Of a DNA stretch of 32,245 nt, positions 2,103-24,650 are shown in pieces. The translations under genes were made by a program, and so were the position numbers. The number at the start of each line of letters is the position of its first letter. Within the stretch, counting starts at the first letter, position 1. The stretch lies in NCBI GenBank assembly GCA_016218805.1, contig JACRCW010000054.1, positions 1-32,245 of the forward strand, given 5' to 3'. This stretch comes from Deltaproteobacteria bacterium. GTDB taxonomy: Bacteria; Myxococcota; JACRCW01. The notes beneath the pieces were generated by a model. That model made no database searches. It worked only from the letters and a program-made list of their open reading frames with translations, and was not told where the DNA came from.

Positions 2103-5100
2103 TCACGCCAGCCCAAAGAACTTCTGGAACTGCAGCAACAATTCCGGATCATTGCTCTTGACCGTGCCGCTCATGAACTCCATCACCGTGGGCGTGTAGC
2201 GCTCCTCCACGATGCGGCGGAACATCTCCGCGGAGGTTTTCAGCACGCAATCCGCCTGGTCCGCCGTCTTCTGGTTCACAATGGACACGGCATCCTTGGT
2301 GACCTTCACGGTCCACTTGGCGTCCGCCCCGTCACCCAGGCTGAAATAGTACGTGACCGGCTGCTCCACGCGCGCGGGGTCAAACGTTTTCTCCAGTGAT
2401 CCAAACAGCCGGGGCAGCAGCGGCCCGTCATCCACGGGGCCGCCCACGTCCGCATCCGCGCGGGACAGGTCCAGCAATGACCCGTCCCGCAGCAACTCCA
2501 CCGCGCGCTGGCACAACCGCGCCGCCTCCCGGTACGCGTCTGAATGTCCCAGTCCGCGCGTGCGCTCCCGCAGCTGCTCAATGGTCAGCGGCACGCCGAA
2601 CGTCACCGTGAGGTCCCGCTTGCGCGGAATGATGGCGCCCTTGGGCATGCTGTCATGCGTGCCGCCCAGCCACACCGGCACAATGTCCACGCCGTGGTGC
2701 AGCGCCAGGTAGCCCAGCACGGACTTGAATTCCTGCATTTGCCCGTCGGGACTGCGCGTGCCTTCCGGGAACAGCAGCAGGCTCCGGCCCTGGTCCAGCA
2801 CTTCCCCCGCCTTGCGGAGGGACTGCTTGAGGCTGCCGCTGCGCTCCATGGGGACCAGGTTGGTGAAGTTCTCAAAATAGAACCGCCGCAAAGGCCCGTC
2901 GAAGAAGTAGTCCCGCGCAGCCAGCGATTGCAGGTCCAGCCCCGCATCCCCCAGGGCCACCTTCACCAGCCCCATGTCCAGGTGTGACGCATGGTTGGCG
3001 GCGACAATGAGGTTGCGGTTGAGCGGCACCCGTTCCCGCCCGTGCACGCGCGTGCGGAACGCGCGCTCATACAAGGCGCGCTGGCCCACCCCCAGCACGT
3101 CCCGCACCACGCGTTTCACCGGCGCCGGCAACTCCACGTCCACGTCCTCCGGGTTGACCACGGGCGAGGGGTCCCTGGGCGTGGGATCACCCAGGACGGG
3201 CGCGGGCGTGGTCCGGATCAATTCCACCAATTCCTGCACTGTGTCCGCCTGCGTCACGCGGTCCGGGTCCACCGGCCCGCCGCGCAGGCGCTCCAGCGCT
3301 ACCAGGATTTCCGTCCGCGCCAGGCTGTCCACGCCCAGGTCCGCCGCCAGGCGCGCGTTGATGCGGACATCCGCCACGGGGCGGGCCAGCGCTTCGGCCA
3401 CGGCCACGCGCACCCGCAACGCCAGGCCCTCCTCCAGCACCGCGGATTCCGCCACGCCCTGCTGCCGCTGCTCCTCCAGCCGCTGCAACTCCTGCACAAC
3501 TTCTGAACGCCGCACCTTGCGCGTGGCCGTGCGCGGCAGGGGAATAGATGTGGAATGCACCACCCGCGGCCGGTCATTTTCGGGCAATTGCCGGATGCGA
3601 TCCCGCAGCGCGCGCTCCGACCTCGCGCGGATGAAAGCCTCACTTTCGCCTTCACCCGGCGTGCGCGGGACCCAGAGGCAGGCAACCACTTCGCCGCCCT
3701 GCCCGTCCGGGAGCCCCACAATGGAAATCTCGGAAACGCCCTCCACGCCCTCCAGGTCCGCCTCCACCTGGTCCGGGTACACGTTCTCCCCGGACGCGGA
3801 AACAATGACTTCCTTAGCCCGCCCCACGACAAACAGCCGCCCCTTGCTGTCAATCCGCCCCAGGTCCCCCGTGCGCAGCCACCCATCGGTGATGACCGCC
3901 TGCGTGGCCTCCGCGTTGTCCTCATAACCGCGCATGATGGTGGGACCGCGCGCCAGGATCTCCCCCACCCCGGCGGCGTCCGGCGCATCAATCTTCATCT
4001 CCACGCCGGGCACCGCCACGCCCACGCTGCCTGGGAGCGCGTACTTGCCCATGCGGTGCACGCTGATCACCGGCGAAGCCTCCGTGAGGCCGTAGCCCTG
4101 CAGCAGTTCAAACCCCAGCCCCTGGAAGAACTCCTGCGTGGACGGCGGCAGCGCGGCGCCGCCGGAGATGAGCGCGCGGATGCGGCCCCCCATGCGGTCA
4201 TGCGCGTCACGGAAGAACAGCCGCCCCAGGTTCAGGTTCATGTCGCGCCACAACCAGCGGTTGAGCGCCAGTAACCCGTCAAAGACCGCCGTGGTCACCA
4301 GTCCGCGCTGCTGCACTTCACTGCGAATGCGCCGTTCCAGCAGTTGCCACAGCGCGGGCACGCCAATCATCGCCGTCACGCCGCCGGCTTTCATGCCCGC
4401 GCGCAATTGCTCGGCATTGATTTCCTGCAGATACGTGACACGGCCGCCCTTGTGCAGCGGCATCAACAGCCCGCCGGTGAATTCAAACGTATGGTGCAGC
4501 GGCAGGACGGACAGGCCCGCATCCCGGTGGCCCAGCGGGAAGATGGGCGCCAGGCCGGCCATGAGGCTGGTGAAGTTGGCGTGCGTGAGTTGCACGCCCT
4601 TGGGCTTGCCGGTGGTTCCGGACGTGAAAATCAGGCTCGCAATCTCGGAGCGCTGCGCGCGCGGCACCAGCGCCCGGGGCGTGTCCCATGCGGCGCGGTC
4701 CGTGGCCTTTTCCGCCAGTTCCTCCAGCACCAGGATGTGCGGGACGTGCTGCGGGTCTTCGTCAGATGAACCGAGCAGGTCATTGAGCAGCCGCCCGATG
4801 GCCTGGTGGCGCTTGCGTGACAACAGCACGGCCGAGGCACGGGAGGCGCGCACCAGGCGGGCCAGCGTCTCCGCCGGCAACGCGTGATCCACGGGGACCG
4901 CCGTGCCGCCCGCCTTGAGGATGGCGAAATACCCGATGGACCACGCGGACTGCCCCTCCGAGCACAGCACCACGCGGTCCTGCGGCTTCACGCCCATTCC
5001 CAGCAATTCCACCGCGGCGGCATCCGCGCGGTCCCGCAGTTGGCGGTAGGTGACCTGCTTGAGCCCGTCCGGCGTGAGGTCCTGCAGCGCAATCTTGTTG

Positions 5101-6842
5101 CCCCAGGTGCGGCTGACCTCGTCAATGAGCTGCACCAGGTCATCAAAGCGCGTGACCGGCTGGATCTCCCGCGCCAGGCGCCGGTCAATCTCCGGGTACA
5201 CCCACTTCTCCAGGCCGGGCAGCTGCACCTCGTGCCAGTAATGCCGCCAATCAATCTGCTCCGGCCAGTACGGGAGGCGGATGCGGTCCTGCTCCAGGAC
5301 GTGGTCGCGCAGCTCGCGCATGTGGCCGCACACAAACGTGTAGCGGTTGATCCACGTGAACGGCATGAACAGTTCAAAGATCTTCTGCGTGTTGGAGGCC
5401 TGCTTTTCCAGCGCACTGAGCGCGCCGGCCACCGCCTTGAGCGGCGGCACCGCGGGGGACGCGGCGCGCAGCGCGCGGGACAACCCGCCGGCCACAGCCT
5501 TCACCATGGGTGACGACGTGCGGCGCCACTCCGCCTCCGGCACCGCAATGGGCTCCAGCTTGCGCAGCAGCGGCACCAGCGCGGGCGGACCCAGCGGCCG
5601 GACGCGCGCGCGCGTGCGCTTGTAGAGCCCCGTCAGCTCCACCACGCGGTCCATGGGGAACGGCGCCAGGTCGGAGGTGCCCAGTTGGTAGACCTCGCGC
5701 TGCTTGCCGTGAAGCAGCGCGGCCAGCGCCAGGATGAGCCCTGCGCCCACCCAATCCACCGGGATGATGTCCAGTGACACCACGCCGTCACCCACAAACC
5801 CCAGTTGCCCCTTGAGACCCAGGTACGTCAGCGGCGCGCACGTGTTGACGCCCTCATTCCACCCTTTGACCGGCCATTCCATGGAGCATTCCACAATGGC
5901 GGGGCGCACAATGGTGAACGGCAGGGCACCCTGCTTCACCAGCAATTCGCCCACTTTCTTGGTGAACGTGTAGATGTTGGTAAAGCCCCACTGCTCGGCG
6001 CGCTGCGTGCCCTGGCGGATGAGCTCCTCGCGCACCCACTTGCGTCGCTCGTCGGCAACCAGCTTGCGGTGGCCGGCGCCGTCCTGCGGTTCGCCATGGC
6101 GCTCCGCGCGGGCCCGGGCCCGCTCCGCAAACATCACCTGCTTGTCCGCGTGGTCTGCCTGCGCGCGCGCGGCCTCAATGAGCGCAACGCATTCCTCCAC
6201 TTCGCGCTCGGGGTCAAACACCACGCCGGGCAGGTCGTCCTGGCGGGGGAATGCCTTGGTATCCGGCGGGTCTTCGCGCACGGTGCCGCTGATGGCGCCG
6301 GCCACGTAGCACGTGGAGGTATGCACCACCGGGACGTTCCCCAGCACGCGCGCCACCTGCAGGATGTGCTGCACGCCGCGGCAGTTGACGTCAATGGCCT
6401 CATCCAGCGGCGGCGTGAAATCCACCACGCCGGACACGTTGAATACCGCGGCAATGCGCCCCTGGAGCTTCACCCAGTGATCGTCGTCAACCCCAAGGCC
6501 CGGCAGCGTGATGTCACCGTCAATCACGTCAAACAGCGTCCGCGCGTGTTCAATCCACGCGTCCATTCCCATGGATTCCTGCCAGTGGCGGAAAGGAACG
6601 GAACGGAGGAATTCCTCCTCCAGGCGCTGCCACGCGTTGCGGTAGCCCCCGCGGCGCATCAGCAGGTGCAGCTTGCCAATGCCGGGATACCGCGCCAGCA
6701 GCAGGGACACGGTGACCTTGCCCACAAACCCGGTCCCGCCCAGCACCAGCAGTTCCTTGCCGGCAAGCGTCTTCTCGACGTCAATGGGCGCGCCCGACAG
6801 CAGGGCGTCCGTGGTGCGCGGTCCGCGGGGAAGCCGTTTCAT
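2103..6842 (-). CDS. elbD: Multifunctional ElbD-like enzyme: fatty acyl reductase + acyl-CoA/AMP ligase + carrier protein + PlsC-type acyltransferase + SCP2
   Basis: 1579 aa; GGTGFVGK and YTFTK (reductase), IFTSGTTGKPKG/GYGLTE/TGDLG (adenylation), LGVDSL (phosphopantetheine Ser), NHASHLD and FPEGTRS (acyltransferase), C-terminal ADCVLKTS..FMSGTVK (SCP2-like). Confidence 0.9.
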   Translation of the reverse strand: MKRLPRGPRTTDALLSGAPIDVEKTLAGKELLVLGGTGFVGKVTVSLLLARYPGIGKLHLLMRRGGYRNAWQRLEEEFLRSVPFRHWQESMGMDAWIEHARTLFDVIDGDITLPGLGVDDDHWVKLQGRIAAVFNVSGVVDFTPPLDEAIDVNCRGVQHILQVARVLGNVPVVHTSTCYVAGAISGTVREDPPDTKAFPRQDDLPGVVFDPEREVEECVALIEAARAQADHADKQVMFAERARARAERHGEPQDGAGHRKLVADERRKWVREELIRQGTQRAEQWGFTNIYTFTKKVGELLVKQGALPFTIVRPAIVECSMEWPVKGWNEGVNTCAPLTYLGLKGQLGFVGDGVVSLDIIPVDWVGAGLILALAALLHGKQREVYQLGTSDLAPFPMDRVVELTGLYKRTRARVRPLGPPALVPLLRKLEPIAVPEAEWRRTSSPMVKAVAGGLSRALRAASPAVPPLKAVAGALSALEKQASNTQKIFELFMPFTWINRYTFVCGHMRELRDHVLEQDRIRLPYWPEQIDWRHYWHEVQLPGLEKWVYPEIDRRLAREIQPVTRFDDLVQLIDEVSRTWGNKIALQDLTPDGLKQVTYRQLRDRADAAAVELLGMGVKPQDRVVLCSEGQSAWSIGYFAILKAGGTAVPVDHALPAETLARLVRASRASAVLLSRKRHQAIGRLLNDLLGSSDEDPQHVPHILVLEELAEKATDRAAWDTPRALVPRAQRSEIASLIFTSGTTGKPKGVQLTHANFTSLMAGLAPIFPLGHRDAGLSVLPLHHTFEFTGGLLMPLHKGGRVTYLQEINAEQLRAGMKAGGVTAMIGVPALWQLLERRIRSEVQQRGLVTTAVFDGLLALNRWLWRDMNLNLGRLFFRDAHDRMGGRIRALISGGAALPPSTQEFFQGLGFELLQGYGLTEASPVISVHRMGKYALPGSVGVAVPGVEMKIDAPDAAGVGEILARGPTIMRGYEDNAEATQAVITDGWLRTGDLGRIDSKGRLFVVGRAKEVIVSASGENVYPDQVEADLEGVEGVSEISIVGLPDGQGGEVVACLWVPRTPGEGESEAFIRARSERALRDRIRQLPENDRPRVVHSTSIPLPRTATRKVRRSEVVQELQRLEEQRQQGVAESAVLEEGLALRVRVAVAEALARPVADVRINARLAADLGVDSLARTEILVALERLRGGPVDPDRVTQADTVQELVELIRTTPAPVLGDPTPRDPSPVVNPEDVDVELPAPVKRVVRDVLGVGQRALYERAFRTRVHGRERVPLNRNLIVAANHASHLDMGLVKVALGDAGLDLQSLAARDYFFDGPLRRFYFENFTNLVPMERSGSLKQSLRKAGEVLDQGRSLLLFPEGTRSPDGQMQEFKSVLGYLALHHGVDIVPVWLGGTHDSMPKGAIIPRKRDLTVTFGVPLTIEQLRERTRGLGHSDAYREAARLCQRAVELLRDGSLLDLSRADADVGGPVDDGPLLPRLFGSLEKTFDPARVEQPVTYYFSLGDGADAKWTVKVTKDAVSIVNQKTADQADCVLKTSAEMFRRIVEERYTPTVMEFMSGTVKSNDPELLLQFQKFFGLA

Positions 6843-6845
6843 CCG

Positions 6846-8612
6846 TCAGCTCCCGTGCTGGCCGTTGCCGTTGCCGTGACCGCCGGTATGCCGGTCCGCG
6901 GGCTCGCGCGGGGACACGTTGGGGTCCTCCACGTCACACAGCATGATGGGCGGCGAATGCACCATGGTGAAACTGGGATTCTGCGGCGCGGTGTCCTTGG
7001 CCATTTCAATGGCCTCCGCCAGGTTGCGCGCGGGCTCGTAGCCCAGCGTCTCACACACCTGGTCAGACTTGGCCCCCGCGACGATGACGCGGCCCATGTG
7101 CGCGCGCCCGGCCTCGCCCCAGTACCACATGTAGAACGGGTGCACGGCGTGGTACGCGTTCCCGCGCCGGTACATCTGCTTGTAGATGGGATTGTCCGCG
7201 AATTCCTGCTCATACTTCTTGTGCAAAACCGTGGAATCGCGCGTCAGGGGCAGCAGCCGGTGGAAGAACTCAATGTAGGAGGGGTGCTGCTCCGCATCAA
7301 AGCGGTCCTCCGCCGGGTTGCTGATGATGAGCGTGCCACCCTTCTTCAGCAGTGGAACACCCCGATACAGGTTGTGCATGTATCCGCTGGCCAGCACCTG
7401 CACGAGCACCGGGTTGAGGATGGAATGGATGTTGTACGGGCTGATGAACGGCATCCCCTGGATGACCACGTCCGACTGCCCGCGCACCGGCACGGAGTAC
7501 TGCTGGTAGACGCGCTCCAGCGTCTTCTCGTGCACCGCGTTGGTCTTGCCGGCCCACACCCCCGTCATGGCGTACGGTGCCTCAATGCGGCTGAATACCG
7601 CCGTGCGCGCATCCGCGGGCATCTTGGACAAACCAAACATCAGCCCCTTGAAACGCAGCCAATCAAAATCAGTCCAATCCTCCTCGCGCTTCATGAGGAA
7701 GCCCATCTGGCCGTCAAACATGTGGTTGTTGATGGAGGTTTCAATGTGGAAGACGTCAATCGTCTCGTTGACGATCTTCCCCATCCGGTCCACCGAGTCC
7801 GACAGCGACGAGCGTTTGGGGTCCATGTACGAGTGGCACTCGCGCATGGTGTACGGGTTGTGGTGCGCCTTGAGCGACCGGTACCCGGCCAACCCGACGG
7901 AGACGCTCTTGTTGCCGCCGTCCATGGGCACCAGGTTCACGTTGACGTAGATGAGCAGGTCACTGTCCAGCACACGGCGCGGCAATTCCACCACTTCCCC
8001 GCGCTCCGTTGTCCCGACAATCTCCAGGCCCTCATCCTCGCCGTCAAAGTTGTACAGGCGGTCCGGCCAGTAGTCGCGGAAGATCTTCTCCCCCACGGTG
8101 TGGCGAACCTCCCAGTCCTTCATGCGCCGGTGCAGCGCCGTGGCAATGATGATCTCAATGTCCGTGACGCCGTGGTCCGCCATCATCTGCAGCACAATGG
8201 TGAGCACGCGCTCGCGGATGTCCGGGCGCTTCATGGGCGGCAACGGCAGTGAAATGTCATCAATGGCAATGGTGACCTTCATGCCCGGGTACAGCTTGGC
8301 GTACAGCGGTTCGCTCTGCTCCGGGTGATTCAACGCGTAACGGATGGCCGCGTCCGGGTTGTTGAGTCCCGCCATGGGCGGCTTGGGGAAGATCACGCGC
8401 GTGCCAACGGGCAGGTTCTCCAGGCGGAAATCATCGCCGTAATAGAGCACCCGCGGTGGGCTGTTCTTCTCCGTGTAGACAATGCCGCCGTCCCACGCCG
8501 GCGCGTTGGGTTCGCGGCGGATGCGGACGGTGGGGCCCTGGGGCTTCCGTTCAGGCGCCCGTGCAGGGACGGTGGCCGGGACGGAGGGAGCGGGGGTCTT
8601 CTGCGTCGTCAT
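6846..8612 (-). CDS. elbC: LarA/DUF2088 (lactate racemase N-terminal domain) family protein, ElbC-like
   Basis: 588 aa; AIRYALNHP, KVTIAIDDISLP, IATALHRRM and DGGNKS match LarA-superfamily motifs; sits between the HAD gene and the ElbD-like gene. Confidence 0.8.
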   Translation of the reverse strand: MTTQKTPAPSVPATVPARAPERKPQGPTVRIRREPNAPAWDGGIVYTEKNSPPRVLYYGDDFRLENLPVGTRVIFPKPPMAGLNNPDAAIRYALNHPEQSEPLYAKLYPGMKVTIAIDDISLPLPPMKRPDIRERVLTIVLQMMADHGVTDIEIIIATALHRRMKDWEVRHTVGEKIFRDYWPDRLYNFDGEDEGLEIVGTTERGEVVELPRRVLDSDLLIYVNVNLVPMDGGNKSVSVGLAGYRSLKAHHNPYTMRECHSYMDPKRSSLSDSVDRMGKIVNETIDVFHIETSINNHMFDGQMGFLMKREEDWTDFDWLRFKGLMFGLSKMPADARTAVFSRIEAPYAMTGVWAGKTNAVHEKTLERVYQQYSVPVRGQSDVVIQGMPFISPYNIHSILNPVLVQVLASGYMHNLYRGVPLLKKGGTLIISNPAEDRFDAEQHPSYIEFFHRLLPLTRDSTVLHKKYEQEFADNPIYKQMYRRGNAYHAVHPFYMWYWGEAGRAHMGRVIVAGAKSDQVCETLGYEPARNLAEAIEMAKDTAPQNPSFTMVHSPPIMLCDVEDPNVSPREPADRHTGGHGNGNGQHGS

Positions 8613-13697: not shown

Positions 13698-15080
13698 GTG
13701 TCCCAGCCGCTGCATTTCCTGGAGAGACTGGCGCGCGTGACGCCCGCGGAGGCGGCGCTGGCCAGTGAGCTGGCGCGTGATTCGGTGGCGGTGCGCGGCT
13801 TCCTGGTGAAGGCACGCGCCCGGGATCCGGCAGTGCCTGACGCGGAACGCTTTGCGCTGCCGCTGTCCGCCGCCGCCCAGCGCAGCCAGATGATTGTGAG
13901 CCGGGACGGGAACGCGGTGACGTGCCTGGGGCCGGGGATGGAGCACAAGGACGCCGCGGCGCTGCCGTGGGCGTGGGTGGACGCGTTTGCGCGGGAGCTG
14001 CGCGAGGCGGTGCACGCCACGGTGGTCCTGCAGCGCGAGGTGGCCGGCCAGGCGGGCGGCCACGTGCTGGACCGGCTGGTGCACGCTCCCGGATCCATCA
14101 CGCACGCGGACCACGCCACGCTGGAGGCGCTGGTGCCGTTGCTGGGCGGGCTGCTGACGGAGAGCGTGCTGATGGCGGCGGACCTGGTGCGGACGGAGAT
14201 TCCCGCGTGGGCTGCGGGCCGCCACGTGGATGACGCCACGCTCAGCGAGTGGTGGACGCGTTACCTGCGCGGGGCGCTGGCGATGTTCCTGGGCGGGGCG
14301 CGGGCGTTTCCGGCGCGCGCGGTGGTGCTGCACGCGGCCACGCCGGACGTGTACCTGTCCGCGCGGGCCTCCTGGTGGGCGGCACGGCGCGGCGCGGAGA
14401 CGCTGGACGTGCTGGAGGAGTTGGCCGCACAGCACGGGCTGTGGGGCGGGGAGCATGAGCTGTCCGTGGCGGTGGCGACGGAACAGCCGCTGCTGGCGGG
14501 GCGGGTGCGTAAGTTTGTCAAAACGCACCGGCACCAGGCCGGCGCGCAGTACCTGGAGTTGCTGCAGCGTGCGCTGGATGATCCGCGGGGCGCGCTGGAC
14601 CACGCGCTGTGGGCGGTGCTGCCGGTGCTGCCGGCGGTGCTGGTCCCCGCTGAAGCGGGCCCCGGGTCCCCGCTGTCCACCGAAGCGCTGGTGGAGACGC
14701 GCCGGGGGCTGGGCGCGGTGCCGGGTGAGGCGCCGCGCAAGGTGGCCGCGCGTATGCACCGGCGGCTGGGCCAGCTGGTGGATGAATGGATGGACGGTGA
14801 CGACGCCACGCGGCTGCGTCACTGGCGGCGCCTGGTGCGGTGGACGCCGCTGCGGTTCAACGCGTTCCCGCTGGGCACGCTGTTGTGTGCGCGCGCCCCG
14901 CGCGAGGCGTTTCTTCCTGACGTCACGCCCACGCGGGACTGGGACGCGGACACGGGGCGCGCCTACCTGGGCACCGTGCTGCGCGGGCTGGCCCGCCCGG
15001 CGGCCCCCCGCCCGGGACCCAATGCACCCTGCCCGTGCGGCAGTGGTAAGAAATACAAAAAGTGCCACGGGCGCGCGTGA
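13698..15080 (+). CDS. Hypothetical protein with a C-terminal SEC-C zinc-binding motif
   Basis: 460 aa from a GTG start; ends PGPNAPCPCGSGKKYKKCHG; N-terminal part not recognised. Confidence 0.8.
   Translation: MSQPLHFLERLARVTPAEAALASELARDSVAVRGFLVKARARDPAVPDAERFALPLSAAAQRSQMIVSRDGNAVTCLGPGMEHKDAAALPWAWVDAFARELREAVHATVVLQREVAGQAGGHVLDRLVHAPGSITHADHATLEALVPLLGGLLTESVLMAADLVRTEIPAWAAGRHVDDATLSEWWTRYLRGALAMFLGGARAFPARAVVLHAATPDVYLSARASWWAARRGAETLDVLEELAAQHGLWGGEHELSVAVATEQPLLAGRVRKFVKTHRHQAGAQYLELLQRALDDPRGALDHALWAVLPVLPAVLVPAEAGPGSPLSTEALVETRRGLGAVPGEAPRKVAARMHRRLGQLVDEWMDGDDATRLRHWRRLVRWTPLRFNAFPLGTLLCARAPREAFLPDVTPTRDWDADTGRAYLGTVLRGLARPAAPRPGPNAPCPCGSGKKYKKCHGRA
15033..15080 (+). repeat. 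48-bp direct repeat, left copy (3' end of the SEC-C gene)
   Basis: CCGTGCGGCAGTGGTAAGAAATACAAAAAGTGCCACGGGCGCGCGTGA; 47/48 identical to 17002-17049. Confidence 0.95.
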
Positions 15081-15228
15081 CCAGGGCCGTGCCAGGAGCC
15101 GCTGGTGGCGCGGAACTCGCGGTGACGCGTGGACGGTCAGGGTCAGGACGTCCGCTTTGCGCGTCAGGAAGCTGGAATCCGACGCCCGGGTGGCCTACAT
15201 CCAACGATGGACGGCCTCCGAGGACTCC

Positions 15229-16296
15229 ATGGCCCTGATCGAACAGCTCGACATCGCCGGCTATCGCCTGTTCGACCAGTTGCGGGTCAGCGGCCTGACC
15301 CGAGTGAACCTGGTTGTCGGGAGGAACAACGCCGGCAAGACGGCGCTCCTCGAGGCCGTGGAGGCGCTCGTCTCGGAGGGGTCGCCCTTCGCGTTTTATC
15401 GGGCGTCGCTGGAGCGCGGCGAGACACGCCGCGGCGTGCTCAAGCAGGACTCCGAGGCAATCGCGATCGATGTGCGCCGCTGGTTCCGAAACCACCTCCT
15501 GAAGCCGGGCGCCCACATCCGGATTGCGTCGGGCGGCTCGCTGCCGCGCGTTCTCGAGTGCAAGGTCCTCGAGGTTTCTTCCGACCAGGGCCCACCCTTT
15601 GTTCCCGGGGGCTTTCGTCTCGACACCAAGCGGGAGCCGCGCGACCGGGCCTCCGAACTACAACTGCCCGTCCAACCGAACGGTCTCCTCGGTGCCCCTC
15701 CAGTGACGATGTTTCTTGATTTCGGACCCACGCTCCCGAGGCCGGTCAGTTTTGTGACGACGCGGCGCCAGACTGTGACGGAGCTTCTTCCCCTGTGGTC
15801 GCGCGTTGTGCTGACGCCCCAGGAGACGGACGTCGCCGTCGCGCTCCGTGCGATCGACCCGGCGATCGAGCGCGTGGCGCTGTCGGGGCTCGGCGACGAA
15901 GCGGTCGGTTCCGTGCTCCTCCATGGCGCGGTCGAGCCGGTCCCGCTGGGCAGCCTCGGCGAAGGCACCACGCGCATGCTCGCCATCGCGCTGAGCCTCG
16001 CCACCGCGAAGGGAGGCTTCCTCCTGGTGGACGAGATCGACACCGGCCTCCACCACACGGTCATGGCGGACATGTGGCGACTGGTCATTGAGACGGCGAA
16101 GCGTCTCGACGTGCAGGTGTTTGCGACCACGCACAGCCTCGATTGCGTCAATGCCCTGGGCTGGCTCGTGGAGACGAACGTGGCGCTCGGCGCGGAGGTT
16201 TCGCTCCACCGGATTGAGCGTGGCCGCGACCGGACCACGCCTTACACCGCCGCGGAGATTGCCGCCGCTGCCCGTCACCACAGCGAGCTGCGCTGA
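15229..16296 (+). CDS. ABC-type/AAA_15-AAA_21 family ATPase (OLD/AriA-like)
   Basis: Start re-set to MALIEQLDIAGYRLF (GAGG RBS); Walker A GRNNAGKT, signature-like LGEGTTRML, Walker B LLVDEIDTGLH, H-loop FATTHS. Confidence 0.9.
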   Translation: MALIEQLDIAGYRLFDQLRVSGLTRVNLVVGRNNAGKTALLEAVEALVSEGSPFAFYRASLERGETRRGVLKQDSEAIAIDVRRWFRNHLLKPGAHIRIASGGSLPRVLECKVLEVSSDQGPPFVPGGFRLDTKREPRDRASELQLPVQPNGLLGAPPVTMFLDFGPTLPRPVSFVTTRRQTVTELLPLWSRVVLTPQETDVAVALRAIDPAIERVALSGLGDEAVGSVLLHGAVEPVPLGSLGEGTTRMLAIALSLATAKGGFLLVDEIDTGLHHTVMADMWRLVIETAKRLDVQVFATTHSLDCVNALGWLVETNVALGAEVSLHRIERGRDRTTPYTAAEIAAAARHHSELR

Positions 16297-16961
16297 TGGG
16301 CCGTCCGGCCAGGTCCAGCCCGCACCGCCTCCTCGTCGAGGGACAGGACGACCTCTTCGCGATCGCGCACCTGATCCGCGCCCGCTTCGCTGCGGCGCAA
16401 TCCGCGATTGACCTCGACGCACCTTCGCCGAACGCGCCGTGGATTGAACAGCACGACGGCCTCGAAAACCTGCTCAAGGCGGGCAACATCGAGTCGGCGG
16501 CCAAGACGTATCTGCGACTCGGGATTGTCGTCGACGCCGATCAGGTGCCGGCAGCTCATTGGAGGGCCGTGGTGGGGCGACTCGCGACGGTCGGAGTGAC
16601 GGTCCCGGCGTCGCCCGCAACGGGAGGCGTTATCGTCCCGGGCTATCAGGAGGGGTGGCGGGTCGGCGTCTGGCTCATGCCGGACAACGCGCGCCCCGGT
16701 GCCCTTGAGGACTTCCTCCTGCCGCTCATGCCCGGGGAGGACGCGCTGTGGCCCGAAGCGGTCAGGGCCACTGACGCGGCCGTGCAGGTTGAACGCCGCT
16801 TCGGCGTCAACGACGACCTCAAGGCGCGCCTGCGGTGCTGGCTGGCCTGGCAGGCGGAGCCCGGCGCGAACCTCGGCGTGGCCGTATCCAGGGGCGTGCT
16901 CGACCCGCTCAGCCCAGCGGCCGATCCCTTCGCGCGGTGGGTCGAAGCCCTGTTCGCGTGA
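16296..16961 (+). CDS. DUF3226-like TOPRIM-fold protein, putative nuclease partner of the ATPase
   Basis: TGATG overlap with the ATPase; LLVEGQDD, GIVVDAD and VWLMPDN..GALEDFL motifs. Confidence 0.8.
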   Translation: MGRPARSSPHRLLVEGQDDLFAIAHLIRARFAAAQSAIDLDAPSPNAPWIEQHDGLENLLKAGNIESAAKTYLRLGIVVDADQVPAAHWRAVVGRLATVGVTVPASPATGGVIVPGYQEGWRVGVWLMPDNARPGALEDFLLPLMPGEDALWPEAVRATDAAVQVERRFGVNDDLKARLRCWLAWQAEPGANLGVAVSRGVLDPLSPAADPFARWVEALFA

Positions 16962-17001
16962 CGCGTGCGCCGCGCAGCCCCTCACGCCCACGCGACTGCG
17001 A

Positions 17002-17049
17002 CCGTGCGGCAGTGGTAAGAAATACAAAAAGTGCCACGGGTGCGCGTGA
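17002..17049 (+). repeat. 48-bp direct repeat, right copy (non-coding relic of the SEC-C 3' end)
   Basis: One C>T mismatch versus 15033-15080; preceded by TCACGCCCACGCG, which also occurs at 14923-14935. Confidence 0.95.
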
Positions 17050-17094: not shown

Positions 17095-17514
17095 ATGGGA
17101 ACACTTGTCATGTTTGCGCTGCTGGCGGCGCAGTATCCCGGTGAGCCGCTGTGGCTTCCCGGCGGCTCCCCCTCGCGTTCCGGCCGCGTGGTTGAGCTGA
17201 GCCAGCCCTGCCCGCGCGTGGTTGCTGCGCTGCGACAGCACTACCGGAACGCGAGTGCCATTGTGTTTGACCGCAGCGACGGGGCGGACCGCCTCCGTTC
17301 CAAGCGTGTGGGGGACGCGTGGGAGCGCGCGGTGCTGGAACCGCGGGACGGCGCGTGCTGCGTGACCATCACGCCCATGTTCCGCGGGGCCGCCGTCGTC
17401 GTGGATGGCGCGCCGCCGCGGTTTGTGACGCTGGTGCTCCACCGCAATGACGAAGCCCGCCGGCAAGCCGCGGACATGGACCACCTGCGCAAGCCGGCCC
17501 GCCCGATCCGGTGA
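17095..17514 (+). CDS. Hypothetical small protein, possibly exported
   Basis: 139-aa ORF filling the gap, with a short hydrophobic N-terminus (LVMFALLAA) and GC-rich third codon positions. Confidence 0.5.
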   Translation: MGTLVMFALLAAQYPGEPLWLPGGSPSRSGRVVELSQPCPRVVAALRQHYRNASAIVFDRSDGADRLRSKRVGDAWERAVLEPRDGACCVTITPMFRGAAVVVDGAPPRFVTLVLHRNDEARRQAADMDHLRKPARPIR

Positions 17515-17626
17515 CCTGCCCCGACGGGGCACCGCTGACTTTCCGACGTCAGCGGTGAGCCGCCACGCTGGACGGGCCTGTGCGGCTGCGACATGCTCTC
17601 GCCTCAGGCGGATGCGCGGAGGTGGG

Positions 17627-20170
17627 ATGCGTAGGCTCGTGGTTCGGCTGGCGTGGGTGGGAGTACTTGCCGGGTGTCCGCGGCCCGTGGACGAGACGGT
17701 CAAGTGCAACTCCACGGCGGACTGCACGCGCGTCCAACGCTGCCAGGACGGCATCTGCGTGCTGGATACCGGCGGGGGCAGTTCCGGTCTGGCTGGCGCG
17801 AGCAGCGGCAGCGCCACGGCGGCGTCCTCGTTGGGCGGGGTGAGCAGCGGATCTGGCGTGTCCAACAGCGGCTGCCCCCCGCAACACATGCGCTGTGATG
17901 GCCTGTGCGTGGACCCCGCCACCGACGAGATCTTCTGCGGCGCTTCCGCGGACTGTCTGGGCACCCACCGCGGGCAGATCTGCGTGGGGGAGGTGTGCGT
18001 TGCGGGAGCCTGCGTGTCGGGCTGCCCGTCGGAATACGGACTGGTCCAATGTTCCACGGCGTCCGGGACGGGCACGTACTGCGTGGATCCCGCCAGCAGC
18101 ACGGTGTTCTGCGGCGCGCATGATGACTGCGCCGGCACCAACGCGGGCGCCACCTGTGCGGAAGGCGGTACGTGCGTGGGAGGTACGTGCAGTTGCCCGG
18201 ACGGCGGGCGTGACTGCAACGGCGCCTGCGTACCCGGTGCGGCCTGTTGCACCACAACGGAGTGCTCGGCGGGCAGGCAGTGCCTGGGCGTGCCGGACGC
18301 GGGCCACAAGACCTGCGCGTGCCAACCTGGGGACGTGGACTGCGCGGGAACCTGCGTGAGCAACCAGGGATGTTGCAGCAACGCGGACTGCACCGGCGGC
18401 CGCATCTGTGGTGCGCCGGTGGTGGCGGGCGCCGGCCTCATCCGTCGCTGCGAATGCCCGGCGGGACAATCCCTCTGCAACGGGACCTGCTCAGTCAACG
18501 CGGGCTGCTGCGCGGCGGCGGACTGCGCGCCCGGCCAACAGTGCGTGCCCCCCGGTGACGGCGGAACCGCAATGATCTGTGTGTGTCCGGGCGGCACGTT
18601 TTGTGAGCCTTTGGCCCAATGCGTGGCGGCCGGAGCCTGCTGCCGCAACGCCGACTGCAGCGGCGGGCACGCGTGCCTTGCCGGGGCGGACGCGGGACCC
18701 TCCTGCGTGTGTCCGCTTGGAACGCGGGAGTGCCAGGGCGCCTGCCTGGCCACGGACCGCTGCTGCCTGGACGCGGAATGCACCGGCGGCCGGACCTGCC
18801 AGTCCAACAACTGCCTGTGCCCTGCGGGGACCCGCCTGTGCGGCAGCGCGTGCGTCCCGCTGGACCGTTGCTGCACGCAGCCCCAGGACTGCCCGGCGGG
18901 CCAGACCTGCCCCGCCGACGGAGCCTCCTGCCAGTGCACGGGCGGCGGCGAAGGCTGTGGGACCGGGTGCATCCCCGCCGGGACGTGCTGTTCCACCGTG
19001 GCCAGTTGCACCGGGGGCAAGGTCTGCACCGCTCCCGGTTCCACATGCACCTGCCCGTCGCCCACCCGGGAGTGCGGCGGGACGTGCATCCCCGCGGCGT
19101 CCTGCTGCGTGGATGCGGACTGCGGCGGCGGTCAGGTGTGCCCCAGCCCAGGCGCCACGTGCGCGTGCGCGGCCGGCACGCGCCTGTGCAACGCGGCGTG
19201 CATCCCGGACGGAACCTGCTGCTCCAGTACAGACTGCGGCGGTGGGAAGACGTGCGCCGCCCCGGGTGCAACCTGCGCCTGCCCGTCGACAAAGTACGAT
19301 TGCGCGGGAACTTGCGTGGCCAGCGGGACCTGCTGCAACGCGCCGGACACCTGCGTTGCCACCCAGCACTGCCCGGCACCCGGCGGGACCTGCGTGGCCA
19401 ACTGCGCCGCCAATGCGGGGGATGCGTGTGGAAGTTGCGGCGGCATCGTCCAATGCGACGGTTCCTGTTCCGTCGCCACGCCGGGGAATTACGCGCAAAC
19501 CTGCGGCAGCTGCGGTGGCACGTATCAATGCAACGGTTCCTGTTCCGTCGCCACACCGGGGAATTACGCGCAAAGCTGCGGCAGCTGCGGCGGCACCATC
19601 CAATGCGACGGTTCCTGTTCCGTCGCCACACCGGGGAATTACGCGCAAAGCTGCGGCAGCTGCGGCGGCACCATCCAGTGTGACGGCAACTGTTCCGTGG
19701 CCACGCCGGGGAATTACGCGCAAACCTGCGGCAGCTGCGGGGGCACCATCCAGTGTGGCGGCAACTGCTCCGTGGGGACGCCCGCAAACTACGGCCAGAA
19801 CTGCGGCAGCTGCGGTGGCACGTATCAATGCAACGGTTCCTGCTCCGTTGCCACGCCGGGGAACTACGGTGTGGCCTGCGGCAGCTGTGGCGGCACCATC
19901 CAGTGTGACGGCAACTGCTCCGTGGGGACGCCGTCCAACTACGGTGATCCGTGCGGCTGCTATGGGACCATCCAGTGCAACGGGTCGTGTTCGCAGGCGG
20001 CGTGTGGAGCCGGATTCTCCTGCTACGGCGGCGGCTGCAATCCCACGGCGGAATGGCCGTGCGGCGGCGCGGGCGGTTGGAATTGCGGCGGAACCAAGCA
20101 CTGCTGCGGTCAGGGCGAACCCGGGACGGATTCGCACGGGTGCATGAACAACGGCCTCAACTGCTATTGA
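17627..20170 (+). CDS. Cysteine-rich repeat lipoprotein (myxobacterial type)
   Basis: GGAGG RBS, MRRLVVRLAWVGVLAGC lipobox; two CVDPxxxxxFCG modules, about ten 8-Cys repeats and 7+ 25-aa repeats. Confidence 0.85.
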   Translation: MRRLVVRLAWVGVLAGCPRPVDETVKCNSTADCTRVQRCQDGICVLDTGGGSSGLAGASSGSATAASSLGGVSSGSGVSNSGCPPQHMRCDGLCVDPATDEIFCGASADCLGTHRGQICVGEVCVAGACVSGCPSEYGLVQCSTASGTGTYCVDPASSTVFCGAHDDCAGTNAGATCAEGGTCVGGTCSCPDGGRDCNGACVPGAACCTTTECSAGRQCLGVPDAGHKTCACQPGDVDCAGTCVSNQGCCSNADCTGGRICGAPVVAGAGLIRRCECPAGQSLCNGTCSVNAGCCAAADCAPGQQCVPPGDGGTAMICVCPGGTFCEPLAQCVAAGACCRNADCSGGHACLAGADAGPSCVCPLGTRECQGACLATDRCCLDAECTGGRTCQSNNCLCPAGTRLCGSACVPLDRCCTQPQDCPAGQTCPADGASCQCTGGGEGCGTGCIPAGTCCSTVASCTGGKVCTAPGSTCTCPSPTRECGGTCIPAASCCVDADCGGGQVCPSPGATCACAAGTRLCNAACIPDGTCCSSTDCGGGKTCAAPGATCACPSTKYDCAGTCVASGTCCNAPDTCVATQHCPAPGGTCVANCAANAGDACGSCGGIVQCDGSCSVATPGNYAQTCGSCGGTYQCNGSCSVATPGNYAQSCGSCGGTIQCDGSCSVATPGNYAQSCGSCGGTIQCDGNCSVATPGNYAQTCGSCGGTIQCGGNCSVGTPANYGQNCGSCGGTYQCNGSCSVATPGNYGVACGSCGGTIQCDGNCSVGTPSNYGDPCGCYGTIQCNGSCSQAACGAGFSCYGGGCNPTAEWPCGGAGGWNCGGTKHCCGQGEPGTDSHGCMNNGLNCY
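19427..19993 (+). repeat. Intragenic 75-bp tandem repeat, 7 full copies + 1 partial
   Basis: Units start at 19427, 19502, 19577, 19652, 19727, 19802, 19877 and 19952; consensus CGSCGGTIQCDGSCSVATPGNYAQx. Confidence 0.95.
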
Positions 20171-23447: not shown

Positions 23448-23484
23448 CCTTGAAATTTGGGAATCAGTATCCCTATTTTCAATG
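23448..23484. promoter_or_regulatory. 37-bp palindromic box B just before the ATPase start
   Basis: CCTTGAAATTTGGGAATCAGTATCCCTATTTTCAATG; AT-rich dyad ending 5 bp before the ATG at 23490. Confidence 0.55.
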
Positions 23485-23489
23485 TGACC

Positions 23490-24650
23490 ATGAAACGCAT
23501 CCGTGCGCTCCGCGCCGTCCGGGAACTGTTCCGGACCCATCCGGTGGTGACCCTGGTAGGCCCGCGGCAGTGTGGGAAGACCACGCTGGCGCGGGAACTT
23601 GCGCGGGGCCCTGGGTTCAAGGGCGGGCCGGCAACGCGGTTTGACCTGGAGGACCCCGTGGACCTGGCCCGCCTGGCCAACCCGCGGCTGGCCCTGGAGA
23701 ACGCTTCCGGCCTGATCATTATTGACGAGGTGCAGCGCCGGCCCGACCTGTTCCCTCTCCTCCGCGTCCTGGTGGATCAGCGCCGTCCGCGGAAGTTCCT
23801 CATCCTGGGCAGCGCGTCCGGCGGCCTGCTGCGCCAGAACAGCGAGTCCCTGGCAGGCCGTTCAGCCTTCCTGGAGCTGACGCCCTTCTCCCACCACGAG
23901 GTCGTTGGCCTGGACCGGCTCTGGCTGCGCGGCGGCTACCCCCGCGCGTGGCTGGCGCGCACCGACGCAGACGCTTTCACGTGGTTGTCCCAGTACGTGA
24001 CCACGTTCCTGGAGCGGGACATCCCGGCGTTGGGTCTCCGCATCCCGCCGGTGGCGCTGCGGCGCCTGTGGATGATGCTGACGCACACGCACGGCCAGAT
24101 CCTCAACCGGTCAGACCTGGGACGCGCCATGGGCCTGGACCACAAGACGGTGGCGAATTACCTGGACGTGCTGACCTCCGGGTTCATGGTTCGGCAGCTG
24201 CAACCGTGGTTTGCCAACGTGAGCAAGCGACAGGTCAAAGCACCCAAGCTCTATTTCCGGGACTCCGGCCTGTTGCACCAGTTGCTCGGCGTGCGCTCAC
24301 GGGCCGCGCTGGACGTCCACCCGAGCGTGGGCGCGTCATGGGAGGGGTTTGCCCTGGAGTGCGTCATCCGCGAGCTGGGCCTTGGGCCCACGGAGGTCTT
24401 CTTCTGGTCCACGCACGCAGGCGCCGAGTTGGACCTTTTTGCGCACGTCAACGGGAGCCCCTACGGGTTTGAGATGAAGCGGGCGGACGCGCCCGTCCTC
24501 ACGCCGTCCATGCGCATTGTGCTGGAGGACCTCAAGCTCCGCCACCTGTTTGTCATCTTCCCGGGGAACACCACCTACCCGCTGCATGACCGGGTGACCG
24601 CCCTGGGGTTGGGGCTGCTGGACCGCCGCCTCTCCCGGTTGTTGCGCTGA
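23490..24650 (+). CDS. AAA+ ATPase, AAA_14 + DUF4143 family
   Basis: GPRQCGKTT Walker A, IIIDEVQR Walker B, LGSAS, ESLAGR, RGGYP, KAPKLYFRDSGL, C-terminal ELDL...FEMK PD-(D/E)xK-like motif. Confidence 0.9.
   Translation: MKRIRALRAVRELFRTHPVVTLVGPRQCGKTTLARELARGPGFKGGPATRFDLEDPVDLARLANPRLALENASGLIIIDEVQRRPDLFPLLRVLVDQRRPRKFLILGSASGGLLRQNSESLAGRSAFLELTPFSHHEVVGLDRLWLRGGYPRAWLARTDADAFTWLSQYVTTFLERDIPALGLRIPPVALRRLWMMLTHTHGQILNRSDLGRAMGLDHKTVANYLDVLTSGFMVRQLQPWFANVSKRQVKAPKLYFRDSGLLHQLLGVRSRAALDVHPSVGASWEGFALECVIRELGLGPTEVFFWSTHAGAELDLFAHVNGSPYGFEMKRADAPVLTPSMRIVLEDLKLRHLFVIFPGNTTYPLHDRVTALGLGLLDRRLSRLLR

Follow-up and report, generated by a model that had tools for sequence, protein, structure and literature searches.

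The window, a 32,245-nucleotide stretch from the genome of a Deltaproteobacteria bacterium, contains an ABC-type ATPase gene and a DUF3226 gene enclosed between two direct repeats (Table 1). The stop codon of the ATPase gene and the start codon of its partner share one base (TGATG), and these two ORFs are the only ones in the 1921-bp insert. The repeats are identical at 47 of 48 positions, with a spacing of 1969; the final base of the left copy is also that of the SEC-C host gene's stop codon, and the right copy is an orphan located 61 bp upstream of the next called gene. The GC content of the insert is 69%, compared with 74% in the host gene. By codon adaptation both inserted genes rank among the lowest 5% of the genome, with the host gene at the 53rd percentile.

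Table 1. Features of the insert and its host gene (positions in the window).
Feature	Position	Strand	Description
SEC-C host gene	13698..15080	+	460 aa; C-terminal SEC-C motif (Pfam SEC-C E 3.8e-9); 3' end is the duplicated target
Left direct repeat	15033..15080	+	48 bp; covers the SEC-C gene's final 15 codons and its stop
Insert leader	15081..15228	+	148 bp; ribosome-binding site GAGGA at 15220-15224
ABC-type ATPase (AAA_21/AAA_15; PADLOC PDC-M38A)	15229..16296	+	355 aa; compact, without long coiled coil
DUF3226 TOPRIM-fold putative nuclease (PADLOC PDC-M38B)	16296..16961	+	221 aa
Insert trailer	16962..17001	+	40 bp
Right direct repeat	17002..17049	+	orphan copy of the SEC-C gene's end; differs from the left copy at one base

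No sigma-70 consensus was found in the leader, which has no similar DNA elsewhere in the genome, and the insert has no terminal inverted repeats. The window yielded no tRNA or Rfam RNA. The contig contains neither a tyrosine recombinase (eight are found on other contigs of the genome) nor a match to an IS91-type transposase, and the first-pass annotation was correct in describing a pair bracketed by 48-bp direct repeats with no integrase or transposase. Elsewhere in the window are a gene for a long, cysteine-rich and probably exported protein (17447-20170, + strand), with 75-bp tandem repeats at 19352-19943, and a gene for an apparent 1579-aa fusion (2103-8612, - strand) that, by eye, joins fatty-acyl reductase, acyl-CoA synthetase, carrier, acyltransferase and SCP2 parts and sits behind a lactate-racemase-like gene. 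A solo AAA_14 and DUF4143 ATPase gene (23457-24650, + strand), a defence candidate that matches PADLOC PDC-S01 (E 4e-82), has no bracketing repeat. A repeat scan of the genome also found CRISPR-like arrays with 38-bp and 30-bp units on contigs C59 (44218-45850), C97 (34697-35212) and C113 (35308-36070).

The arrangement could have arisen during assembly, if a short repeat had fused unrelated pieces. The genome assembly is in 170 contigs, and none of the read-set contigs listed, from four runs of one groundwater study, spans the whole stretch. However, in contigs of the deepest run, possibly the source run, the depth of the insert (21.5) equals that of its flanks (23.2 and 21.2); a contig from a second run (14810-15523) reads through the left repeat, and the two repeat copies differ at one base. 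An artefact is very improbable.

The nearest relative, G001, belongs to another genus and has an ortholog of the SEC-C gene (51% identity) in the same nuoEF context. No cassette lies behind that ortholog, but the genes downstream of it also differ. In both genomes the SEC-C gene is divergent from nuoE/nuoF-like genes. It belongs to a small paralog family with three further copies in the genome (contigs C64 and C54 among them), which have in common an N-terminal region without a Pfam match.

The ATPase matches the Pfam families AAA_21 (E 2e-18) and AAA_15. Its motifs comprise a Walker A (GRNNAGKT), a signature-like sequence (LGSLGEG), a Walker B (LLVDE), a D-loop (IDTGLH) and an H-loop (TTHS), and the residues Gly31, Gly36, Lys37, Gly244, Gly246, Asp268, Glu269, Gly273, His302 and Ser303 are invariant in all 120 aligned homologs. 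The earlier description of two coupled genes, the first encoding an ABC ATPase with Walker A, Walker B and H-loop, is therefore upheld. The predicted structure (pLDDT 94.5) has a longest helix of 17 residues and no long helical insertion. In a structure search it matched PtuA, OLD, Rad50 and GajA with E-values of about 1e-11 to 1e-13. The best PADLOC match was PDC-M38A (E 4.6e-61), followed by AbiLi (E 5.8e-42).

The partner protein matches DUF3226 over its full length (Pfam, E 2.6e-47), as had been proposed, and the acidic motifs noted before are present as VEGQDD (14-19) and DAD (80-82). Its best PADLOC model is PDC-M38B (E 2.4e-32), which is also matched by 110 of 110 effector homologs. A PDB sequence search with the effector found nothing, and no NCBIfam model scored above its cut-off. 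A structural model of high confidence (pLDDT 96.1) gave no Foldseek match at E <= 0.001, with OLD entries and the DUF3226 structure 2P62 ranked first. In a wide structural search only three of 48,161 chains reached Z 8: PH0156 (2P62; Z 11.9, rmsd 3.6, 189 aligned), the C-terminal region of Burkholderia OLD (6NK8; Z 10.7, 5.4, 168) and Thermus OLD (6P74; Z 9.2, 3.2, 133). GajA (Z 7.5), retron Eco2 (7.3), DnaG (6.9) and AriB (6.7) ranked lower, interspersed with unrelated Piwi MID domains at Z 7.1-7.5. These top matches agree with the TOPRIM fold suggested by the first-pass annotation, and the effector is predicted to have a TOPRIM fold of the OLD/PARIS type.

The metal-binding acidic set of AriB consists of Glu26, Asp30, Asp88, Glu90 and Glu122 (PMC11464382). 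In a weak profile alignment with AriB (E 0.22), Glu15 of the effector falls onto the catalytic Glu26 and Asp80 onto Asp88, and Glu138 corresponds to Glu122 by position only. Conservation was scored in 110 of 114 proteins, four shorter or partial matches having been excluded: Glu15 is present in 110, Asp19 in 108, Asp80 in 110, Asp82 in 79 (Asn in 29) and Glu138 in 109. Asp130 is also conserved, as is Lys176 (106 of 110), which may correspond to the catalytic lysine of OLD. Judged from this alignment, the effector retains the acidic residue set of AriB, which forms a candidate active site.

In all 119 loci with enough flanking sequence, from 160 fetched, the ATPase gene lies upstream of the DUF3226 gene; the pairing is obligate. 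The hosts belong to many phyla. Pfam DUF3226 was found in none of 40 relatives, and an alignment search detected the effector family in 29 of 401 genomes of the phylum, its own included, so the distribution is patchy. With its absence at the G001 ortholog, these counts rule out a core or syntenic gene pair, which the first-pass annotation had named as a result that would count against its proposal. They also fit its description of a minimal acquired unit of about 2 kb, as do the size and codon adaptation of the insert. The pair is real, intact and recently acquired. A second, divergent AAA_21 ATPase and DUF3226 pair is present in the same genome (contig C131, 2839-4393); its effector match covers model positions 58-205 only, and no bracketing repeat was found.

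Phage records contained no match to the pair, and four homologous loci lie in viral contigs. Six plasmids carry distant homologs, once beside BrnTA and once as nearly the sole cargo of a 4-kb plasmid. On two Acinetobacter plasmids the pair, and just the pair, is bracketed by pdif-like sites. The site pattern used, which we take to represent pdif, gave three matches per plasmid where about 0.04 and 0.01 were expected. The ATPase and DUF3226 genes constitute a two-gene pdif module on these plasmids, of the kind described in PMC10272872. In the annotation of one of them, pAHTJR2, the ATPase is broken into two pieces while the DUF3226 gene is whole, which argues against a strictly neutralised toxin, unless the split is a sequencing error.

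The genomic context of the pair was assessed in 37 loci with long flanks, using a PADLOC threshold of E <= 1e-25, with one generic kinase match excluded from the counts; neighbouring genes came from a simple gene caller, with long proteins truncated at 420 aa. A PADLOC match within two genes of the pair was present in eight loci and absent from 29. Four loci lie in or beside Hma systems: in L174, L140, L142 and L167 the pair is inside or directly beside an Hma defence operon, and in L174 it sits between hmaA and hmaB. The enrichment in defence islands that had been suggested as a check was not significant within the loci (14 of 148 near neighbours compared with 7 of 126 more distant ones, p 0.26).

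Another gene of the genome shares part of the repeat sequence. Over 33 nucleotides, both copies match the SEC-C coding sequence of secA (contig C95, 13153-13185) without a difference, four rare codons included, and the probability of this by codon usage is about 6e-6. In G001 the same SEC-C motifs are encoded with ordinary codons. The identity suggests recent sequence exchange or gene conversion between SEC-C ends, the secA sequence being known from the assembly only.

The most economical explanation of the repeat appears to be short-homology recombination. Insertion of the pair would have copied the final 48 bp of the host gene, leaving the SEC-C gene intact, without an integrase. Candidate routes would be the integration of a circle carrying the gene end or homology-facilitated illegitimate recombination, a process that has been discussed for orphan gene ends (PMC5361080). 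Restriction systems inserted with a long target duplication and without a mobility gene were reported by Furuta et al. 2010 (PMC2853133), including cases of 46-47 bp; the mechanism is unproven. The present locus resembles these in that its repeat exceeds 30 bp, its insert is shorter than 20 kb and a mobility gene is lacking. It differs in that the cargo is not a restriction system, an empty allele was not seen and secA contains part of the repeat too.

Alternatively, the repeats might be the attL and attR sites of an integrative element directed at SEC-C-coding DNA, such as the end of secA, and stripped of its integrase and of everything else but the pair. The exact ending of the left repeat at a stop codon, as in gene-restoring att sites, and the rare-codon identity with secA would both fit. 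However, the cassette contig is without an integrase of the tyrosine-recombinase type and the insert holds no ORFs beyond the pair; no element lies behind secA in the 18-kb contig C95, where the repeat is found once; the repeats around four homologous cassettes are unrelated in sequence and come from four different genes, and 21 bracketed inserts have no shared ends. Such an element is improbable here. SEC-C as a preferred target was ruled out, a SEC-C motif adjoining the pair in none of the 160 homologous loci (one had such a motif 8.6 kb away). The SEC-C site is therefore incidental: the first-pass annotation was right about where this cassette lies, behind a SEC-C gene. A non-autonomous IS or MITE was likewise ruled out by the lack of terminal inverted repeats and of shared ends, and an IS91-type remnant was found in one other bracket only.

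Repeats bracketing the pair were also sought at homologous loci. Repeats of 25-131 bp bracket four of 98 homologous pairs, compared with four of 566 control windows (p 0.019), with a different host gene supplying its 3' portion in each of the four cases. None was found at the same score in 31 further loci with both flanks, although these flanks were shorter and many of the genomes are kin (the 31 are what remained of 34 after removal of the own locus, one locus without an ATPase start and one without a right flank). Bracketing repeats are thus weak as a family trait.

Similar duplications occur elsewhere in the genome. An orphan copy of the 3' end was found 0.3-12 kb downstream of 26 of 5248 called genes, compared with 10 for 5' ends and four for gene middles, some of the 26 being tandem arrays or doubtful gene calls. 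Gene-end duplication events numbered 13 in 6.3 Mb of this genome, six in 1.6 Mb of homolog loci (one being a tRNA site) and none in 0.4 Mb of G001; the similar rate in the homolog loci rules out a host-specific trait. The case for repeat ends grouping tightly at stop codons was weakened by gapped alignment, in which the ends ranged from -22 to +216, and much of the 3' bias may arise because selection keeps the host gene intact.

The cargo of 20 such regions, chosen by eye, includes BrnT with a partner, an AAA_21 ATPase with DUF4276, DUF433 with DUF5615, UPF0175 and Uma2, as well as a hydrolase, peptidases and unknowns. Of 68 toxin-antitoxin-like domain matches, five lie inside such brackets, compared with 72 of all 5248 genes (p 0.002; p 0.012 without the cassette described here), but sight of the cargo had guided the choice of three of the five families, and the remaining two gave 0 of 8. 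The same genome holds a parallel case, an AAA_21 ATPase and DUF4276 pair between identical 50-bp repeats that include the host stop codon (contig C124, 24298-26341). A BrnT-type module is flanked by identical 47-bp repeats whose end coincides with a stop codon (contig C98, 37624-38583), and a DUF433/DUF5615 module by repeats of about 140-180 bp (contig C80, 29212-30228). Two of the genome's 35 Uma2-family genes, by eye an unusually large expansion, are repeat-bracketed. In other genomes, gene-end duplications reaching the stop codon enclose a truncated ATPase of the same family (L071, 2501-4557) and, by eye, HicA/HicB-like genes (L121, 4583-8096).

These flanks suggest that insertion accompanied by a long duplication of the target, known for restriction systems, is also a route by which toxin-antitoxin and defence modules are placed. 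In a broader and rather unlikely version, such modules would pass from one bacterium to another by a general, integrase-free copying of the 3' end of any host gene, DNA for the SEC-C motif, which is widely shared, would serve as a portable landing pad, and DUF3226 would be an active nuclease with its own trigger. Host genes would then survive insertion, since the copied 3' end often runs to the stop codon; a SEC-C landing pad would account for the 33 bases shared with secA and, in part, for SEC-C tails on unrelated proteins. Current views are not overturned by these findings.

The preferred reading, to which a probability of about 0.68 is assigned together with the recent, integrase-free insertion, is that the pair encodes a toxic nuclease that is gated by ATP and serves abortive defence or addiction. 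The ATPase would dimerise on ATP and hold the co-translated nuclease inactive. A phage protein, an infection-linked change in nucleotide state or a lost supply of ATPase would free or activate the nuclease, which would then cut cellular nucleic acid and stop growth, giving abortive defence with addiction as a side effect. The target is most likely tRNA, as in PARIS, although this assignment is tentative. The data behind this reading are the intact ATPase motifs, the TOPRIM fold, the conserved acidic residues, the obligate pairing, the patchy distribution and mobility as a unit of two genes; how the complex forms, how it is gated, what triggers it and what it cuts are proposed by analogy. The many loci without a PADLOC match within two genes count against a role in defence.

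Those solo insertions among unrelated genes might instead reflect a pure addiction module, akin to a type II toxin-antitoxin system and kept because its loss is harmful, without a real anti-phage role. The flanking repeats would permit loop-out, which addiction counter-selects, and carriage on small plasmids and the toxin-antitoxin-like nature of other duplication-bracketed cargo in the genome point the same way. However, four loci lie in or beside Hma systems, the PDC candidates were identified by their embedding in defence systems, and the related PARIS and AbiL are abortive-infection systems; addiction as the sole role is unlikely. The pair might also act as a split OLD DNase, a permanent ATPase-nuclease complex that cuts foreign or damaged DNA in response to ATP level or DNA state, with no release of a toxin. 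The effector fold is nearer to the C-terminal region of OLD than to AriB, Lys176 is conserved as the catalytic lysine of OLD would be, and pAHTJR2, where a whole DUF3226 gene adjoins an ATPase in two pieces, would suit a nuclease that is harmless alone. However, Z scores do not reveal the substrate, and the title of a 2026 preprint names P2 OLD itself a tRNase. A split DNase is distinctly improbable, and the ATP-gated toxic nuclease remains the preferred reading.

Both proteins have the PADLOC candidate PDC-M38 as their best models (PDC-M38A and PDC-M38B, adjacent and in the same order), the assignments being HMM-library matches by E-value rather than by system score or coverage cut-offs, and no feature was found that sets the pair apart. 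The 145 phage defence candidates (PDCs) of Payne et al. came from genes embedded in defence systems, and the main text of that preprint contains no occurrence of M38 (bioRxiv 10.1101/2024.01.29.577857). The full-text literature searched, the scope of which lay within non-subscription journals and main texts, yielded no mention of PDC-M38 or DUF3226 and no experiments on the family. The DUF3226-type effector had been called little studied; the type of system is not new, because the pair is already catalogued. DUF3226 gains a predicted fold and a candidate active site, and the clean two-gene unit with natural boundaries suits a first test of PDC-M38.

The pair had also been described as PARIS/split-OLD-like. 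This stands for architecture, fold and acidic set, but not for membership in PARIS or OLD. As in the wider class of ABC ATPase and TOPRIM systems, Walker A and B, signature, D-loop and H-loop are all intact, and the predicted TOPRIM fold carries a conserved Glu and a DxD motif. Like PARIS, the pair comprises two genes, an ABC ATPase followed by a TOPRIM protein, with the acidic active-site set retained. The PARIS effector, however, belongs to DUF4435, and neither the effector studied here nor any of its 110 homologs matched DUF4435 or AriB models. AriA is a 55-kDa protein that forms a hexamer, with helical insertions for its assembly (PMC11464382), whereas the present ATPase lacks long helical insertions; in a weak alignment, the AriA-binding arginines of AriB (Arg28 and Arg31) are replaced by Gln17 and Leu20, in variable columns. 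In PARIS, release is triggered by Ocr and tRNA-Lys is cleaved. The best HHpred match of a lactococcal AriB is 2P62 (PMC11381338), and DUF3226 is therefore distantly linked to DUF4435.

OLD (class 1) and Gabija GajA match in both ATPase and effector folds, but in class 1 OLD the two are fused, and the insert has no UvrD-like GajB partner. HEC-01, of the same ATPase and TOPRIM architecture, gave no protection in its test (10.1101/2024.01.29.577857); one of the 110 effector homologs matched the HEC-01B model (E 2.8e-4). AbiL has the same two-gene layout and an ATPase family that is the second-best match here, but neither the effector nor its 110 homologs matched AbiLii/RloB or DUF4276. Lactococcal AbiL and two AAA and TOPRIM_OLD pairs have been described as abortive-infection or toxin-antitoxin systems (PMC13064643, PMC10440598), and the NetFlax pairs of this kind, which have the two-gene layout seen here, were validated as toxin-antitoxin pairs (PMC10440598). 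On its sequence matches, then, the pair is a member of PDC-M38 and not of PARIS, OLD, Gabija or AbiL, and would work like PARIS or AbiL/split OLD. With 355 aa for the ATPase and 221 aa for the putative nuclease, it represents a compact PARIS/OLD design that is useful for the question of a minimal sensor.
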